Below, piece by piece: positions 19,144 to 26,123 of a stretch of DNA of 32,000 nucleotides. Made by a program: the position numbers and the translations under genes. Position 1 is the first letter of the stretch, and each line of letters starts with the position of its first letter. The DNA is from Promethearchaeota archaeon (GTDB lineage Archaea; Asgardarchaeota; Lokiarchaeia; Sigyniarchaeales; SOKP01): contig JAUWGH010000003.1 of the NCBI GenBank assembly GCA_030606485.1, positions 30,001 to 62,000 on the forward strand. Direction: 5' to 3'. Under the pieces are notes generated by a model that worked only from the letters and a program-made list of their open reading frames with translations, did not search any database and was not told where the DNA came from.

Positions 19144-21084
19144 TTAAATTGCTTCTTTTTTCATATAATTATTTTTTTTTATTGGAATAATAAAATGAAA
19201 TGTTGAACCCTTTCCAACTTCTGATTCAACCCAAATTTTTCCATTATGTCTTTCTATAATTCTTTTACATAGGGCTAGACCTATTCCAGTTCCAAGATAT
19301 TCAGACTTTCTGTGTAAACGTTGGAATATAATAAAAATACGATCAAAATATTCTGGATCTATGCCGATCCCGTTATCTTTTACTGAGAATTGCCAGTTAT
19401 TTTTTTTTTTTTTTGCTGAAATATGTATTCTCACGGGATCTTTACTGCGGAATTTTAATGCATTATCAATCAAGTTTTGAAACACTTGTATTAATTGTGT
19501 TTTATCAGCCAATATGTTTGGTAAATAGTCATGGGTTATCTCTACATCATTTTCTTTTATAGTTTCATGTAAATTGAAAAGAACATCTTTTAAAACCTCT
19601 TCACAGTTAATAACTTCAAAAGGATTACCACGAGTCTGAATTCTTGAATATTCTAACAAATCTTCAATAAGAATTTTCATATTATTTGCTCCATCCACAG
19701 CAAATTTAATGAACTCATTTGCATCCTCATCCAGCTTATCTTTATAACGCTTTGCTAGGAGTTGGGTATAACTTGTCACCATTCTTAATGGCTGTTGTAA
19801 ATCATGAGATGCAACATAAGCAAATTGTTGTAGTTCTTCATTGGAACGTTTTAAAGCATTTAATGTATCTTTCATTGCATTTTCTGCTATTATACGCTCG
19901 GTGATGTCCCGGAATATAAGAACAACACCAATAATATTTCCTTTATCGTCTTTTATCGGAGCACCACTATCGGCAATCGGTATTTCCTTTCCTTCTTTAG
20001 ATATTAAAACAGTATGATTCGCCAGACCAACAACAACGTCCTCTCGAATTACTCTCGATACGGGACTTTCGATTTGCTTGCGAGTTTTCTCGTTAACGAT
20101 GTTAAAAATATCTCCTACGGGTTTTCCCGTGGCTTCTTCTTGCTTCCAACCAGTTAAAGACTCGGCAACAGGATTTAAAAACGATATCTTACCTTTTGTG
20201 TCGGTAGCAATTACCGCATCGCCAATACTATTAAGTGTCGTAGAAAGCCATTCTTCGGATTCTTGGAGCTTTTTTGTGCGCTCTTCCACCAATTCTTCAA
20301 GATGCTCGCGATATTTCCTTAATTCCTCCTCCGCTTTCTTTCGCTCCGTAATATCTTGTCCAACTCCTTGAATCCCAATTGCCTTTCCATCAGTATCTTT
20401 TACCGCAGTAACATTCCAAGAAATCAATACCCTTTCTTTTTTTCCCTTTTTCCAAAAATATTGCTCAAAACCTTCTTGACTCATATTTGGATCTATTCTA
20501 ACCTTCTGCCTTACGGGTTCAGCCCTTTCTAATTCATTTTTCTCAAGCATTGATCTTATATCCTTACCAATCATCTCCCCTTCTTCATATCCTAATACTT
20601 TACAGGTGTATGGATTCATTAACGTTACTCTCCACTCATCATCGTGTGCCAAAACGATGGCATTGGAATTATTTATTAACATTTGGTATCTATGCAATTC
20701 TGCCTCTATCTTCTTACTCTCAGTAATATCTCTGAAAACCTCAATAACTGCTGGATTACCATAAAAATCTTCTACGAAAAAAGCGTCAATTCCAAAATAT
20801 TTTGTTTCTTTGGTTGAAGGAAGTGTTGAAATTTTTTCGAATCTCATCCTACGTTGTTCTATTGTTAAAGATTTTTCAATAGGACAAGATTCACAAGGTT
20901 TTGAGCGCTTAAATAAAGTTTCATAGCAGTTTTTTCCAACCAAATTCTTTCCGAATTCTTTGAGAGCATTTTCATTTGCAAATAATATCTTATTCTTCTG
21001 AGAAATAACCAAAATTGGATCTTTCATATTTGAAAAGATTAACCCTATTTTTTCCAGAGATTTTTTTAACTCTTGTGTTGCCAT
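19144..21084 (-). CDS. Cytoplasmic PAS x3 histidine kinase with a Cph1-type kinase core
   Basis: FAYVASHDLQQPLRMV, QNLIDNALKF, DNGIGI, FQRLH, GTGIGLA. PAS1 carries CY...PCESCP. AGGTGA Shine-Dalgarno upstream. Confidence 0.95.
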   Translation of the reverse strand: MATQELKKSLEKIGLIFSNMKDPILVISQKNKILFANENALKEFGKNLVGKNCYETLFKRSKPCESCPIEKSLTIEQRRMRFEKISTLPSTKETKYFGIDAFFVEDFYGNPAVIEVFRDITESKKIEAELHRYQMLINNSNAIVLAHDDEWRVTLMNPYTCKVLGYEEGEMIGKDIRSMLEKNELERAEPVRQKVRIDPNMSQEGFEQYFWKKGKKERVLISWNVTAVKDTDGKAIGIQGVGQDITERKKAEEELRKYREHLEELVEERTKKLQESEEWLSTTLNSIGDAVIATDTKGKISFLNPVAESLTGWKQEEATGKPVGDIFNIVNEKTRKQIESPVSRVIREDVVVGLANHTVLISKEGKEIPIADSGAPIKDDKGNIIGVVLIFRDITERIIAENAMKDTLNALKRSNEELQQFAYVASHDLQQPLRMVTSYTQLLAKRYKDKLDEDANEFIKFAVDGANNMKILIEDLLEYSRIQTRGNPFEVINCEEVLKDVLFNLHETIKENDVEITHDYLPNILADKTQLIQVFQNLIDNALKFRSKDPVRIHISAKKKKNNWQFSVKDNGIGIDPEYFDRIFIIFQRLHRKSEYLGTGIGLALCKRIIERHNGKIWVESEVGKGSTFHFIIPIKKNNYMKKEAI

Positions 21085-21133: not shown

Positions 21134-21349
21134 TTAAATGTTATTTTGAACAATTTGTCTAAATTCATTAATATTAATGAGTTTTGAAATATATTCATTA
21201 AAACTTGCTTGTAATATACGCTCCTTATCTCCTTTCATCGCAAAAGAGGTAACAGCAACGATGGGAATATCTTTAAATTTTTCGATTTTACGGAGTTCTT
21301 TACAAATATCAATTCCGCTCATATCTGGCAATTGTATTAGTTATTCCGA
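21134..21349 (-). pseudogene. 5'-truncated duplicate of the DivK-like receiver at 21656-22024
   Basis: IQLPDMSGIDICKELRK...IPIVAVTSFAMKGDKERIL is nearly identical to the neighbour. The similarity starts right after the phospho-Asp position, an in-frame TAA lies just upstream, and KP has become KL. Confidence 0.8.
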
Positions 21350-21423
21350 CATATTCTAACGAATTTTCATCTTATTTTTATGTGGTTGAATAAAATTGAC
21401 AAATTTTAATTTAACAATATCTG

Positions 21424-21439
21424 ATAACAAATTTGTTAT
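21424..21439. promoter_or_regulatory. Perfect 16-bp palindrome ATAACAAATTTGTTAT (candidate operator)
   Basis: Self-complementary; shares the ATAACAAA core with the inverted repeat at 22151-22233. Confidence 0.45.
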
Positions 21440-21655
21440 AAGGTATTAATAATTGTATCACTATATAAATATACTTGTTGTAATTCTTACATCATAATAT
21501 CAATTTTTTAAAAGATTTTTTATAACGATTAAAAAGTAATAATTTAATTTTTCATAAAAAAAGTTAATTCATTAAAAAATAGTGTAAAAAATTTCCTTTA
21601 AAAAGAAATATAATCTTAAAAATTGTAATATCAGAATTTTTATATTAAAATAAGA

Positions 21656-22024
21656 TTAGACAATAACATTTTTGACTGTTTTCCTAAAATCGTTAATATT
21701 TATTGGTTTTGCAATGTAAGTATCGAAACCTGCTTTCAATATACGTTCTTTATCACCTTTCATCGCGAAAGACGTGACAGCAATAATTGGAATGTTTTTA
21801 TATTTTTCAAGTTTACGAAGTTCTTTACAAATATCGATTCCACTCATATCTGGTAGTTGAATGTCTAAAATTATTAGGTCTGGATTATCTGACTTTAGAG
21901 ATTCAAAAGCTCGACCACCATGGGTCTCTGCTATAATTTCAATATCAGGCATTGTATTTAGGACTGCTTTAAATAATTTCATGTTTTTTTCATTATCTTC
22001 CACAAGAAATACTCGTTTTTTCAT
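21656..22024 (-). CDS. DivK-like single-domain response regulator
   Basis: LVEDNEKNMKLF, LDIQLPDMSG, AVTSFAMKGDKERI, YIAKPI closely follow the Caulobacter DivK pattern (VEDNELNMKLF, DIQLP, AVTAFAMKGDEERI, YISKPI). Confidence 0.93.
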   Translation of the reverse strand: MKKRVFLVEDNEKNMKLFKAVLNTMPDIEIIAETHGGRAFESLKSDNPDLIILDIQLPDMSGIDICKELRKLEKYKNIPIIAVTSFAMKGDKERILKAGFDTYIAKPININDFRKTVKNVIV

Positions 22025-22150
22025 AAAACCTTAACTCTATATTATTGTAATGATGAAATACGCATCTCCTCATCATCAAATGTTTGTATATTACTATAAC
22101 AACACTCTTTGATAACAAATTGATACAAAATATTAGTGATAAACATTGTA

Positions 22151-22233
22151 TTTAAATATTTGTTATAATAATGTGTTTATTAATATTAAATTCTTCATTT
22201 TAAATATTTACTCTATTATAACAAATATTTAAA
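22151..22233. repeat. Perfect 20-bp inverted repeat (TTTAAATATTTGTTATAATA / TATTATAACAAATATTTAAA) with 43-nt spacer in a divergent promoter region
   Basis: 22151-22170 is the exact reverse complement of 22214-22233. Confidence 0.7.
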
Positions 22234-22459
22234 AATTAAAAAGATTATGTAGTAATTACAAATATATAGTTTTTTGTGTGTAAAACCCGATATATAAAAA
22301 GACAAAATAAAATTGAATAATGCGTGTTTATTAATGCATTGAATTAGTAGGGCAGTATGGAATTTGGTTTCTTGTAAAAAAATGATTTTAATTATTAAAT
22401 TGATTTCTTTGATTCTGATACAATATTGAAATCCTCATACTTAAAATTTTTGAGAAAGA

Positions 22460-23320
22460 ATGAATGAAAAAAAAACTGAAGAAATGGAAAAATATGAAAA
22501 AATGACTGGCAAACACGCAATTTGGCGTGGAGTAATAACCGAAGGATTTAAAAAATGGCAACGAGGAGAAAAGATATACGATAGATTTAAGGAGAGAATA
22601 GCTCTTTATGTATCTAAAGAAACTAAAGAAGATTGGCAGAATTTCGTAAGAGATTCAAAATACACTTCAATTTCTAAACTAATAAGGGATGCTGTAAACA
22701 ATTTCATTGAAAAAAAAATAAAAGTAATAGAGCATGAGAATTATAATAAAGGTGATCAACTTAGAAATCTTTCAGATATCTCTTATGTTTTAAAAGAAGC
22801 ATTAACTTCAATAAAAGGATTTTCCCAATTATTAATTGAAAATTATAAGGAAGAACTCAATGAGGAAATCATTTTAAAAATAAAAGAAATTTTTGATAAA
22901 AGCATCTTTCTTGAAAACAAGATTAATGAATCGTTAGAATACTCTTATATTAGTAAATCACAATATGACATTTTACTAATTGAAGATGATATATCAACAA
23001 TAAAGTTATTAAAATCATTTTTTGAAAGGAAGGGTTATAGTTGTAAAGGTGTCATTAGTGGTTCTAAAGGATTGAATGAATTAAAGAGAAATATTCCTAG
23101 AATTATTTTATTGGATATTATTTTACCTGATATTAATGGATTTGATGTTTGCAAAATAATAAAATCTAATAAAATATATCAAAATATTCCCATCTTTCTA
23201 TTAACTGCTGTATCAAGTCTAAAAGTTGAGCATTTTATTAAAAAAGCAAAAGTAGAAGGTTATATCTCAAAACCTTTTGATTTTTCGGATTTTAATTCAA
23301 TATTTAAATATTTAAATTAA
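22460..23320 (+). CDS. AIWRG-motif - RHH-like - DHp-like (His->Tyr) - REC protein, copy 1
   Basis: RIALYVSKETKEDW...SISKLIRDAV (ribbon-helix-helix pattern); SYVLKEALTSIKGFSQLL (H-box-like, Tyr109); intact REC (IEDD, LLDIILP, LTA, SKP). Confidence 0.8.
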   Translation: MNEKKTEEMEKYEKMTGKHAIWRGVITEGFKKWQRGEKIYDRFKERIALYVSKETKEDWQNFVRDSKYTSISKLIRDAVNNFIEKKIKVIEHENYNKGDQLRNLSDISYVLKEALTSIKGFSQLLIENYKEELNEEIILKIKEIFDKSIFLENKINESLEYSYISKSQYDILLIEDDISTIKLLKSFFERKGYSCKGVISGSKGLNELKRNIPRIILLDIILPDINGFDVCKIIKSNKIYQNIPIFLLTAVSSLKVEHFIKKAKVEGYISKPFDFSDFNSIFKYLN

Positions 23321-23333
23321 TTTTTAATAATTT

Positions 23334-23663
23334 TTAATCTCTTAAAATGGGAATAGAAAAAGAAAATTTACTTCCTCTATTTCTTCCTGCTGATTCCATC
23401 CAGATATTTCCCCCGTGTAATTCAATAATCTTTTTCGCAATATATAGACCGAGCCCTGTACCCTCAATTCCAACATCCCAACCTTGACCATATCTTTCAA
23501 TTTTTCCAAATTGTTTAAATAATTGATTCTTTTCCTCAGCGGAAAACCCAATTCCATTATCTTCTATTGAGATTATAAAAAAGTTAGATTTTACTTCAGA
23601 AAAGATTTTAATTTCTCCTCCAAGAGATGTGTAGTTAATTGCGTTTATTAATATAAGCATCAT
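23334..23663 (-). pseudogene. Stand-alone or 5'-truncated HATPase_c (kinase catalytic domain) without H-box
   Basis: INAINYT (degenerate N-box), EDNGIGF, LFKQFGK, GTGLGL, HGGNIWMES, GSKFSF. An in-frame TAA lies 9 codons upstream of the first ATG. Confidence 0.7.
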
Positions 23664-23783
23664 AAAATTAAAATTGGAAAAATTAAATTAAATTTTGTGT
23701 TAATAATTGAAAAAACTTATATTATACTTTGTGATAATAATAATCTAGAAATGTAATAAAAATAGTGAATCTTTCCTTTTTTA

Positions 23784-24659
23784 TTGGTGATTTCAATTTT
23801 GAGTAATGAAAAAAAAAGTAGTGAAATGGAACAATATGAAAAAGAGACAAGGAAATATGCTATTTGGCGTGGTATTATAACTGAAGGATTTAAAAAGTGG
23901 CAACGAGGAGAAAAAATTTATGATAGAGATAAAGAGAGAATATCACTCTATATTGCAGAAGAAACTAAAGATAAATGGCAGAATTTTATTGAAAGTAGTA
24001 AATATTCTTCTATTTCAAAATTGATAAGAGATGCTGTTGATTTTTTTATTAATGAGAAATTAAGAGTAGGTGTTGATGAAAAACTTAAAAAACTAGGACC
24101 TTTAAAATCAATTACAAATCTTTCTCATGATTTAAAAGAGGCTTTAACTTCGATAAAAGGATATTCACAGTTATTGCTTGAAAATTATAAAGATAATTTG
24201 ACAGAAGATGTATTATCAAAAATTAAGGAGATTTTTAATAAAAGTATATTTCTTGAAAATAAAATAAAGGAAGTTTTGGAAAAAGGAGAAATTGGAAAGA
24301 GACAATATGACCTTCTATTAATCGAAGATGATCCATCGACTATAAAATTATTAACAACTTTTTTTGAAAGTAAAGGTTATTCTAGTAGAGGGGTAATTAG
24401 TGGTTCTAAGGGAATAGATGAATTAAAAGCAAACATTCCAAAATTAATATTGTTAGATATAATATTGCCAGATATAAATGGATATGATGTTTGTAAAATG
24501 ATAAAATCTGAAGAGAAGCTTAAAAATATACCAATTTTCTTCTTAACAGCTATTCCAAGTTCGGAAGTTGAGAAAAGAATTAAAGATGCTGGTGCTGATG
24601 GTTATATTTTAAAACCATTTGATTTTAGTGATTTTGAAATTTTATATACATATCTATAA
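23784..24659 (+). CDS. AIWRG-motif - RHH-like - DHp-like (His retained) - REC protein, copy 2
   Basis: Paralogue of 22460-23320; SHDLKEALTSIKGYSQLL (His115); intact REC (IEDD, LLDIILP, LTA, LKP). Confidence 0.82.
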   Translation: MVISILSNEKKSSEMEQYEKETRKYAIWRGIITEGFKKWQRGEKIYDRDKERISLYIAEETKDKWQNFIESSKYSSISKLIRDAVDFFINEKLRVGVDEKLKKLGPLKSITNLSHDLKEALTSIKGYSQLLLENYKDNLTEDVLSKIKEIFNKSIFLENKIKEVLEKGEIGKRQYDLLLIEDDPSTIKLLTTFFESKGYSSRGVISGSKGIDELKANIPKLILLDIILPDINGYDVCKMIKSEEKLKNIPIFFLTAIPSSEVEKRIKDAGADGYILKPFDFSDFEILYTYL

Positions 24660-24806
24660 ATTTTAAAATTCTCTTTTCTTAGTTACAGAAAGCATTTCTT
24701 TTACATAATCCATAATCTATTTAGTAATAATCAAATTAAACAACTAAGAAATAAAGTATATATTCAATTTATTTGACAAAATTAATTTAAAAATTTGGTT
24801 TAATTA

Positions 24807-26114
24807 ATGGTTATAGGCATAGCATTATTTAGTTGGGATAAGAAGGTGGGTGCGGTTTTAGAGATTAAACATCCTGAAAATCTTGATTTATCACAAAATT
24901 TAATTAACAAAATATATATGACTCATGCTTATAGGCAGGAAAATCAAAAAGAAGAGTTAATGGAAATTAATCTGGAGAATCAAATTATTCTTAGTTACTG
25001 TGATATGTCTAAAGTTGTAAAACTTGGGTATGAAATAATAATCCTTATTGTTCATGAGAAGGAGAAAATACATCTTAAAAATTTAAAATCTGAATTATTT
25101 GAATTTGCGAGAGAAGTGTTAAATAAACCTAAAATTGAGAGAAAGAAGTATTTTTTTGAAAATCTCGATTTGTTTTTTAAAGAAACAGTAAAGAAAAAGA
25201 TATTATTAGTTGGACGAGCAGCTACAGGAAAATCTAGTATTAAGCAAGTTATTTTTGAAGGAAAGATGCCACAGGAGTTATTATCTAATCCCCTTGAGCC
25301 AACTCGTGGTTTAACACCCTCTGTTTATTCATGGTTAGATCTAGATTTGGGTATTTTCGATTCAGCTGGTCAAGAACTGGATTATTTATTAGATGATAAA
25401 AATGAACAAACCTTAGCATTCGAAAATACTGATATTGTAATATATATGTTTGATTACTTAACGTGGATTGAAAATAACGAAATAATAATAAAAGATATAA
25501 AAAAAGTTTCAAGAATTATTAAACAAGAGTCTTATAATGCTAAAATTATATTATTTCTACATAAAATTGACTTAATTAAGGAAGAAAACAGAGAACAAAA
25601 CATAAAAAATATCCAGCGAGAAATAAAAGAACAATTGAATTTGCAGATTTATTTTACAAGTCTTTATCCAAATTTAATTTATAATATTTATAATGCCTTT
25701 TATGAGATTTTAAGTAATTTTTCCAAGGAGACTATTTATTTTAAAGAGGTTTTGGATGAAAAAATTAAAGATAATTCAAAATCTATGTGTTTTATAACTA
25801 ATCAAAATAGTAGTATAGTTGTTCAGACAATGTCTAATGATTTCAATTTTAAATTAATTAACCAAATTCATAGATTAATTGCTCAATTTGACCAATCATT
25901 TGAAGACATGAGCATTAATGATAATATCGATTATATGATACTTTCAAGTTTGAAAAATTTTAATATTATTATGAAATTTCTTAATCTCTCGAATTATGAT
26001 CTCAAAAATTTAATTTTAATCTCTGAAACAATTAGTATCATTCAATTAATAGAATTTTGTGAGGAAATTAAAAATACTTTGAATAGATATTTTTATAAAG
26101 ACATTCAAAAATGA
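24807..26114 (+). CDS. Rag/Gtr-like GTPase with N-terminal uDENN/longin-like and C-terminal roadblock-like domains
   Basis: G1 GRAATGKSSIKQVIF, EPT, DSAGQ, LHKID, TSL (HKxD is the Rag-type G4). N-terminus IALFSWDKKVGAVLEIKHP; C-terminal MCFITNQNSSIV-led region. Confidence 0.8.
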   Translation: MVIGIALFSWDKKVGAVLEIKHPENLDLSQNLINKIYMTHAYRQENQKEELMEINLENQIILSYCDMSKVVKLGYEIIILIVHEKEKIHLKNLKSELFEFAREVLNKPKIERKKYFFENLDLFFKETVKKKILLVGRAATGKSSIKQVIFEGKMPQELLSNPLEPTRGLTPSVYSWLDLDLGIFDSAGQELDYLLDDKNEQTLAFENTDIVIYMFDYLTWIENNEIIIKDIKKVSRIIKQESYNAKIILFLHKIDLIKEENREQNIKNIQREIKEQLNLQIYFTSLYPNLIYNIYNAFYEILSNFSKETIYFKEVLDEKIKDNSKSMCFITNQNSSIVVQTMSNDFNFKLINQIHRLIAQFDQSFEDMSINDNIDYMILSSLKNFNIIMKFLNLSNYDLKNLILISETISIIQLIEFCEEIKNTLNRYFYKDIQK

Positions 26115-26123
26115 GAATCTAAA

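Follow-up and report, generated by a model that had tools for sequence, protein, structure and literature searches.

Two adjacent genes in a 32,000-nucleotide stretch of an Asgard archaeal genome (Promethearchaeota archaeon, contig JAUWGH010000003.1, positions 30,001 to 62,000; hereafter the window) encode paralogous proteins, copy 1 and copy 2, in which a ribbon-helix-helix (RHH)-like segment, a dimerization and histidine phosphotransfer (DHp) hairpin of the HisKA type and a receiver domain follow one another in a single chain. Our best reading, to which we assign a probability of roughly 0.55, is that these are dimeric, phosphorylation-controlled RHH transcription factors acting at their own divergent promoter, that the DHp histidine probably serves as a secondary site and that copy 1, which has tyrosine in its place, would act independently of it. 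To our knowledge, few archaeal response regulators have a DNA-binding output, those few are poorly understood and no Asgard representative has been studied.

The features of the two genes are collected in table 1. The encoded proteins align without gaps over 284 residues (67% identity); the start codon of copy 2 is uncertain, with 23784, 23787, 23799 and 23826 all possible. An initial annotation made from the sequence alone had described two kinase-less paralogues with an RHH-like segment, an H-box-like helix pair and a complete receiver. The open reading frames (ORFs) and Pfam matches agree with this description, and no HATPase_c domain was found by Pfam in either polypeptide. Judged by the Pfam gathering cut-offs (26.9 bits for HisKA, PF00512, and 20.5 bits for RHH_1), the HisKA match of copy 2 lies just above the line at 27.1 bits, while that of copy 1, taken alone, falls below it at 14.5 bits. 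The receiver begins directly after the DHp, across a linker of about 10 residues in both the Pfam matches and the structural model. The tyrosine and histidine codons reported at the phospho-acceptor position of copies 1 and 2 were both verified, as was the replacement of the H-box proline by alanine (LKEAL in both copies, against a family consensus of LKEPL). Homology extends over the full length of the proteins: the top 120 matches are 59–93% identical over 95–100% of copy 2, and copy 1 matches the same set. The G+C content of the window is approximately 27%, and the annotations of its close protein matches name Lokiarchaeota/Promethearchaeota and other Asgard archaea.

The middle segment had been taken for DHp-like on inspection, and a profile built from the N-terminal 158 residues of 68 family members bears this out. 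It matches the complete DHp of the Thermotoga kinase HK853 (E = 1.4e-9) with both helices aligned and the conserved histidine placed on the acceptor H260, so the segment is a genuine HisKA-type DHp. HisKA was matched by 58 of the 68 members, and RHH_1 (at E ≤ 0.01) by seven. An AlphaFold2 model of the full-length protein (mean predicted local distance difference test score, pLDDT, 86) comprises a helix, a β-hairpin, a second helix, an extended stretch, two RHH helices, two long DHp helices and the receiver. Foldseek searches with this model returned mostly receivers, and the N-terminal half was therefore folded and searched separately, which yielded the DHp domains of ERS1, GacS and CpxA.

Conservation was counted over 122 close family sequences, copy 1 included. 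The phospho-acceptor histidine is kept in 115 of them, in line with the importance that had been given to H115 of copy 2, while its surroundings differ from those of kinases. Position H+1, which is Glu or Asp in kinases, is Ala in 101 sequences (Asp in copy 2, Val in copy 1); H+4, Thr or Asn in kinases, is Glu in every sequence; and H+5 is Pro in 103, with Ala found solely in the window's genus and its nearest relatives. In HisKA kinases, autophosphorylation is assisted by the acid at H+1, and phosphatase activity requires the Thr or Asn at H+4. With both replaced, the family resembles neither kinases nor canonical phosphatases, and what remains for the DHp histidine, on the pattern of these residues, is phosphotransfer or a structural role. 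By comparison, E181, D182, D183, D225, T255 and K277 of the receiver are invariant in all 122 sequences. Among 18 divergent cluster representatives, eight have lost the histidine (Y, Y, F, F, V, R, N and L) and kept the surrounding LKEPLT.IKG motif, and the receiver aspartate (D211) is invariant in their alignment. Read from these alignments, the receiver is the universal control site and the histidine is dispensable.

The segment preceding the DHp is likely an RHH domain, to judge from comparisons of sequence and predicted structure. Foldseek searches with the N-terminal model gave the RHH domains of ParD2, PrpA, ParD and NikR, with probabilities of 0.85–0.97 and poor E-values (0.65–2), and the family profile matched RHH proteins in the PDB only weakly (ORF56, E = 0.38; a CopG/Arc/MetJ protein, the CopG chimera, E = 0.96). 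The RHH strand is not formed in the AlphaFold2 monomer model, where the corresponding stretch, K-E-R-I-S-L-Y-V, is extended instead; K36, R38 and Y42 are nearly invariant, and K, R, S and Y, at every second position of the stretch, would point towards DNA. A full-length homodimer prediction for copy 2 scored 0.29 against a mark of 0.42, which is evidence neither way, and an ESM Atlas feature search with residues 1–85 was uninformative (scores of 0.75–0.76).

A candidate DNA target emerged from comparison across genera; footprinting within the genus was uninformative, the intergenic DNA being as conserved as the coding sequence. In four other genera, the 8-mer ATAACAAA is present in 11 of the 12 intergenic regions between the pair and a gene for transcription factor B (TFB, or TFIIB), and in two of 74 other intergenic regions of the same loci. 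The corresponding densities are 2.53 per kb in the TFB/pair regions and 0.10 per kb in the rest of the loci, although the genomes are related and such statistics overstate the significance. The element usually lies 0–5 nt upstream of a TATA-like box. In the window, the region between copy 1 and a divergent stand-alone receiver gene contains an exact 18-nt inverted repeat, TTATAACAAATATTTAAA, each arm of which joins ATAACAAA to a TATA-like box, together with a third element, ATAACAAAT. Nowhere else in the 3.75-Mb genome do three or more such 8-mers cluster, and the 700 nt upstream of the genome's own TFB orthologue contain none, so the element travels with the regulator genes rather than with TFB. 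Its position suggests either an RHH operator placed at the TFB recognition element (BRE) or a specialised BRE.

The history of copy 1 can be followed in the DNA between the two genes. A 109-aa HATPase_c ORF on the opposite strand, overlooked in the initial annotation, corresponds to the C-terminal 106 residues of a 668-aa PAS-HisKA-HATPase kinase, and in a sister species (G040) the intact 668-aa kinase fills the gap between the copies. One 1796-nt deletion, with an identical junction, is common to five lineages (the window, G177, G129 and two metagenome contigs). It took out codons 1 to approximately 562 of the kinase along with the 110 nt preceding its start; the ATG of the stub derives from former intergenic DNA. 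In a sixth lineage (P0021), the kinase is full-length but has two in-frame stops and a frameshift. Copy 1 has CAT (His) in G040 and in the near-identical metagenome clusters P0010 and P0012, and TAT (Tyr) wherever the kinase is dead. Two independent routes thus led to inactivation of the kinase, both confined to Tyr lineages, from which we infer that it worked through the histidine of copy 1. On the best-supported reading, the tyrosine marks a recent loss of histidine, linked to the kinase having died. Among the covering contigs listed for reads of four DNA runs from four studies, none differs at position 22784, and there is a weak hint that the tyrosine is fixed in the window's species.

Selection on the two copies was compared by pairwise ratios of nonsynonymous to synonymous substitution (dN/dS), either across seven lineages or across the Tyr lineages only, with the same Tyr-lineage genomes used for copy 2. 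For the whole gene the two values are 0.29 and 0.33 in copy 1, against 0.19 and 0.16 in copy 2; for the DHp they are 0.42 and 0.55 against 0.31 and 0.26, and for the receiver 0.24 and 0.29 against 0.11 and 0.10. Flanking genes give 0.15–0.32. Of 120 highly conserved columns, 18 differ from the family in copy 1 and nine in copy 2, and the reading frame of copy 1 is intact in all seven lineages. Judged by these values, copy 1 is functional and under purifying selection, with looser constraint than copy 2. Relaxed selection on copy 1 had been raised at the outset as an objection; decay is not borne out by ratios of 0.29–0.33, while a relaxation of about twofold relative to copy 2 is.

On the preferred reading, a dimer held by the RHH segments and a DHp four-helix bundle would bind ATAACAAA elements beside the TATA-like boxes of its own divergent promoter. 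A kinase acting in trans would phosphorylate the invariant receiver aspartate and so alter DNA binding or contact with the basal transcription machinery. The DHp histidine would be a secondary phosphotransfer site (to or from the aspartate) and probably not an autokinase site, since H+1 is mostly Ala, H+4 is invariably Glu and there is no ATPase domain. In the window's genus, a single ancestral gene may have been duplicated, with a PAS kinase between the copies and the histidine of copy 1 tied to it. In the window's own lineage, one C-to-T change would have turned this histidine into tyrosine and the kinase would have been deleted down to the 109-aa stub, with copy 1 persisting as a His-independent, receiver-controlled regulator under purifying selection.

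Several observations count against this scheme. RHH_1 scores 13.4 bits in both copies, under its cut-off; ATAACAAA, at the BRE position, could be read by a TFB paralogue or another factor; the correlation between histidine and kinase sets a single His lineage against several Tyr lineages, seven lineages in all; and the copy-1 DNA tree is star-like, so that one or several His-to-Tyr events, before or after the loss of the kinase, would fit it. The eight losses among 18 divergent representatives further imply that the fold works without the histidine. The same losses, with motif and receiver intact, favour a DHp that is a dimerization or linker scaffold derived from a kinase, in which the histidine has no phospho-chemistry and control runs solely through the receiver aspartate. 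The absent ATPase domain, the missing H+1 acid and the replacement of the H+4 Thr/Asn by Glu would all suit such a scaffold. We regard it as tenable but doubtful, given that the histidine is so widely kept among close members, including all 49 examined from two old paralogue clades, and that its loss from copy 1 coincides with the decay of the kinase beside it, a coincidence that suggests the two are functionally linked.

The initial annotation had favoured an analogy with the Caulobacter pair DivL and DivK, in which copy 1 would be a phospho-dead paralogue that heterodimerises with copy 2 through DHp and RHH and partners the divergent DivK-like receiver. DivL (PDB 4q20) does resemble copy 1 in combining a HisKA-type DHp with tyrosine at the acceptor position, and it is among the weak DHp profile matches (E = 0.01). 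Purifying selection on copy 1, the presence of two copies in nearly every family genome through two independent duplications, the recurrence of His-less paralogues with Tyr or Phe in the family and the near identity of the DNA-facing strand residues between the copies would all fit this proposal. DivL, however, is a pseudokinase with PAS and catalytic and ATP-binding (CA) domains, a fixed tyrosine and neither RHH nor receiver, whereas copy 1 has an RHH segment and a receiver, lacks PAS and CA domains and has a tyrosine that varies between species of one genus. The copy-1 genes of G040, P0010, P0012 and the more distant contig L071 all keep the histidine, so the pair long functioned with two His copies, and because the tyrosine is a recent change inside one genus, the duplication was not made for a phospho-dead partner. 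The divergent gene beside copy 1 is real but encodes a generic stand-alone receiver rather than a specifically DivK-like one. The analogy with DivL and DivK thus falls, and the heterodimer built on it seems unlikely.

It is less probable still that copy 1 is in early pseudogenisation after losing its kinase input. Its whole-gene dN/dS in the Tyr lineages is about twice that of copy 2 (the DHp and receiver values are likewise raised), its departures at conserved columns are 18 to nine, its stem branch is longer (0.47 against 0.20) and the receiver of its L071 orthologue is truncated. On the other hand, the frame is intact throughout, dN/dS is well under 1 and within the range of neighbouring genes, and the catalytic residues of the receiver and the residues of the N-terminal module are all kept. 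A split kinase, in which the HATPase_c ORF would supply the ATPase in trans and phosphorylate the flanking DHp histidines, was rejected as very improbable. The ORF has an ATG, keeps its N, G1, F and G2 boxes and is open in several lineages. Against this, it is the 3′ stub of the 668-aa kinase, left by a deletion that also removed the DNA upstream of the original start, its ATG was intergenic, its dN/dS is 0.47–1.3, it is shortened further in G129 and L072 and it is absent from the other genera examined.

Comparison with HK853 (Thermotoga maritima, PDB 3dge and 4jas) shows both DHp helices and the motif S-H-x-L-K/R-x-P-L-T-x-I-K-G in common. The family differs in having no CA/ATPase domain, Ala rather than Glu at H+1, Glu rather than Thr at H+4 and a receiver directly after the DHp. 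A histidine kinase has its CA domain in the same protein; neither copy does, and the nearby HATPase_c ORF is an opposite-strand deletion remnant. Spo0B and ChpT have a degenerate CA-like α/β domain after the DHp and no DNA-binding or receiver domain. The likeness to them would be functional, namely a kinase-less four-helix-bundle histidine protein able to pass phosphate between receivers; in the family, by contrast, the DHp is followed directly by the receiver with no CA-like domain, and our searches obtained no sequence match to either protein. The 'HisKA, no HATPase' proteins of Archaeoglobi and Methanomicrobia also have a conserved-His DHp, for which phospho-acceptor or phosphatase roles have been proposed (Galperin et al. 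2018, PMC5847659). Unlike the present family, they carry N-terminal PAS/GAF sensors and a C-terminal DHp, with no RHH and no receiver.

The domain order itself is not new. RHH-HisKA-REC (REC denoting the receiver) was already listed for four proteins of the single genome Lokiarchaeum GC14_75, in one sentence of architecture that assigns no function (Galperin et al. 2018, PMC5847659), and our literature search on this architecture found nothing besides that sentence. The GC14_75 proteins share domain order and lineage with the window pair, close homologues being annotated as Lokiarchaeota/Promethearchaeota response regulators, and the window genes are members of this already catalogued, unstudied Lokiarchaeial family. 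They differ from the GC14_75 proteins by a separate genus-level duplication, the H-box Pro-to-Ala change, another genomic context and the tyrosine in one copy. Of the genomes sampled, 37 of 40 from the window's own GTDB family contained the full RHH-DHp module; the 160 drawn from 26 other Asgard families yielded DHp-only matches and not one full module. The window genome (13 contigs) has no family copies beyond these two.

Other genera have two old paralogues per genome, which form two clades. Copies 1 and 2, with their genus orthologues, are instead each other's sisters (support 99), and therefore reflect a separate duplication, or homogenisation, in the window's lineage. The duplication predates the genus, because L071 carries orthologues of both, with a His-bearing copy-1 gene upstream of the copy-2 gene. 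In 16 of 17 loci of other genera, the pair lies head-to-head with the TFB gene, within a housekeeping block ordered GatE, GatD, ribosomal protein L2, TFB, the pair, a 160-aa protein, DUF2110, profilin and proteasome alpha. The 160-aa protein has no Pfam match and sits just downstream of the pair in 16 of the 17 loci (for example L050:8137-8619, minus strand). In the window's genus, the TFB and 160-aa orthologues are on other contigs (the latter at G000:C6:165245-165718 in the window genome, 66% identical and away from the pair), and the pair lies amid kinases and receivers. Identities among the genus genomes are mosaic across window positions 21600–31000 (compared with G040, G129 and G177): the 122-aa stand-alone receiver is 97% identical to that of G040 and 90% to that of G177, whereas copy 2 is 96% identical to that of G177 and 88% to that of G040. 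Recombination between species is suggested by this pattern.

The conserved N-terminal motif of the pair, AIWRG, had been singled out for a profile search. A hidden Markov model (HMM) of this module of about 35 residues recovers both copies (E = 7e-22 and 2.6e-22) and, in the window genome, two further proteins: a 277-aa protein and RNA polymerase subunit A′. In the latter (Rpb1 domains 1–5), the module stands at the extreme C-terminus, after a Lys/Pro/Val-rich tail; a tail module ends ORFs of approximately 980–1040 aa in most of the 41 family genomes searched, all 41 of which have at least one module match. Our literature search found nothing on this tail of RNA polymerase A′. The 277-aa protein has two modules and a C-terminal zinc ribbon, and many family genomes have comparable ORFs of about 260 aa. 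In a 443-aa protein encoded beside a TFB gene, two or three AIWRG/RHH-like units are joined to leucine-rich repeats. By its distribution among these sequences, AIWRG is a mobile module reused in other architectures. Foldseek gave no fold match for the module.

A more ambitious model, which we consider quite unlikely as a whole, would make each protein a one-chain end-station of a phosphorelay in direct communication with the basal transcription machinery. A kinase would feed a His-Asp pair within the dimer, the RHH domain would occupy ATAACAAA at the BRE, the AIWRG module would compete for or mimic a docking site of TFB or RNA polymerase, and in the window's genus the adjacent operon of Rag-like GTPases would also be controlled. 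If true, this would link two-component signalling to eukaryote-type small GTPases, and the regulator is indeed placed immediately upstream of Rag-like GTPase genes. Independently of that model, the family joins a receiver to a kinase-less phospho-His hairpin and a probable DNA-binding domain within a single polypeptide; it also has a small module in common with RNA polymerase and a conserved promoter element of its own. The window's genus also offers a natural experiment: sister species differ in having His or Tyr in copy 1 and a live or dead kinase, which makes the role of the orphan histidine directly testable.

Two Gtr1/RagA-like GTPase genes follow copy 2, an arrangement shared by all genus relatives and by the P0007 and P0008 lineages. 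The stand-alone receiver gene divergent from copy 1 is partly duplicated: a 65-aa fragment (21134–21331, minus strand) repeats its C-terminal half at 77% DNA identity and is followed by a duplicated piece of the promoter region (21332–21655) that contains the perfect palindrome ATAACAAATTTGTTAT. Beyond these lies a 646-aa PAS kinase (19144–21084, minus strand); the ORF at the same position has 874 aa in G040 and the P0021 lineage, the G040 version being 66% identical to the window kinase over 530 residues, and this locus is evolving fast. On the P0008 contig, a 718-aa protein fuses a small GTPase to a histidine kinase (matches to Arf/Ras/Roc GTPase, PAS, HisKA and HATPase_c). Close to it are an RHH-HisKA-REC gene and a Rag-like pair, in front of which stands a 373-aa receiver protein.

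Table 1. Features of the regulator pair, its surroundings and other genes with the AIWRG module. Positions are those of the window unless a contig is named; G000 is the window genome.
Feature	Position	Strand	Evidence and remarks
Copy 1, RHH-HisKA-REC protein, His-to-Tyr variant	22460–23320	+	ORF of 286 aa; Pfam; 67% identity to copy 2; dN/dS 0.29
Copy 1 AIWRG module (helix, β-hairpin, helix)	22475–22585	+	module HMM, E = 7e-22; AlphaFold2 secondary structure of the paralogue
Copy 1 RHH-like segment	22598–22714	+	RHH_1 13.4 bits, residues 47–85; Foldseek to ParD, PrpA and NikR (model of the paralogue)
Copy 1 DHp (HisKA) hairpin	22769–22930	+	HisKA 14.5 bits, residues 104–157; family profile matches HK853 DHp
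Copy 1 Tyr109, codon TAT, phospho-acceptor position	22784–22786	+	CAT in G040
Copy 1 receiver	22970–23293	+	Response_reg 71.2 bits; acceptor Asp219 at 23114–23116; catalytic residues invariant
Copy 2, RHH-HisKA-REC protein, His kept	23784–24659	+	ORF of 291 aa from TTG; Pfam; dN/dS 0.19
Copy 2 AIWRG module	23820–23930	+	module HMM, E = 2.6e-22; pLDDT ~88–92
Copy 2 RHH-like segment	23937–24050	+	RHH_1 13.4 bits; weak PDB profile matches to ORF56 and CopG; Foldseek
Copy 2 DHp hairpin, two helices	24060–24290	+	HisKA 27.1 bits; aligns with HK853 DHp residues 6–82; model helices H92–120 and H127–152
Copy 2 His115, codon CAT	24126–24128	+	aligned to HK853 H260
Copy 2 receiver	24315–24632	+	Response_reg 77.2 bits; acceptor Asp225 at 24456–24458
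Left arm of 18-nt inverted repeat TTATAACAAATATTTAAA (ATAACAAA plus TATA-like box)	22151–22168	-	identical block in seven lineages
Right arm of the same inverted repeat	22216–22233	+	identical block in seven lineages
Third element, ATAACAAAT, receiver/copy-1 intergenic region	22112–22120	+	part of the genome's sole cluster
Perfect 16-nt palindrome ATAACAAATTTGTTAT in duplicated promoter piece	21424–21439	strand-neutral	direct repeat D17
109-aa HATPase_c ORF, kinase remnant	23334–23663	-	Pfam; kinase intact in G040; shared deletion junction; dN/dS 0.47–1.3
Stand-alone 122-aa receiver, divergent from copy 1	21656–22024	-	Response_reg 91.7 bits; position kept in all genus relatives and L071
Two Gtr1/RagA-like GTPase genes	24807–27629	+	Pfam; first starts 147 nt after copy 2, same strand
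RNA polymerase A′ with ~130-aa tail of Lys/Pro/Val-rich repeats and terminal AIWRG module	G000:C5:178559-181597 (L074:2072-5101)	+	
Protein of ~250–277 aa with two AIWRG modules and C-terminal CxxC...CxxC zinc ribbon	G000:C12:154607-155437 (L075:2005-2751)	-	no Pfam match
443-aa protein adjoining TFB gene, two or three AIWRG/RHH-like units plus leucine-rich repeats	L073:1207-2538 (G008:C34)	-

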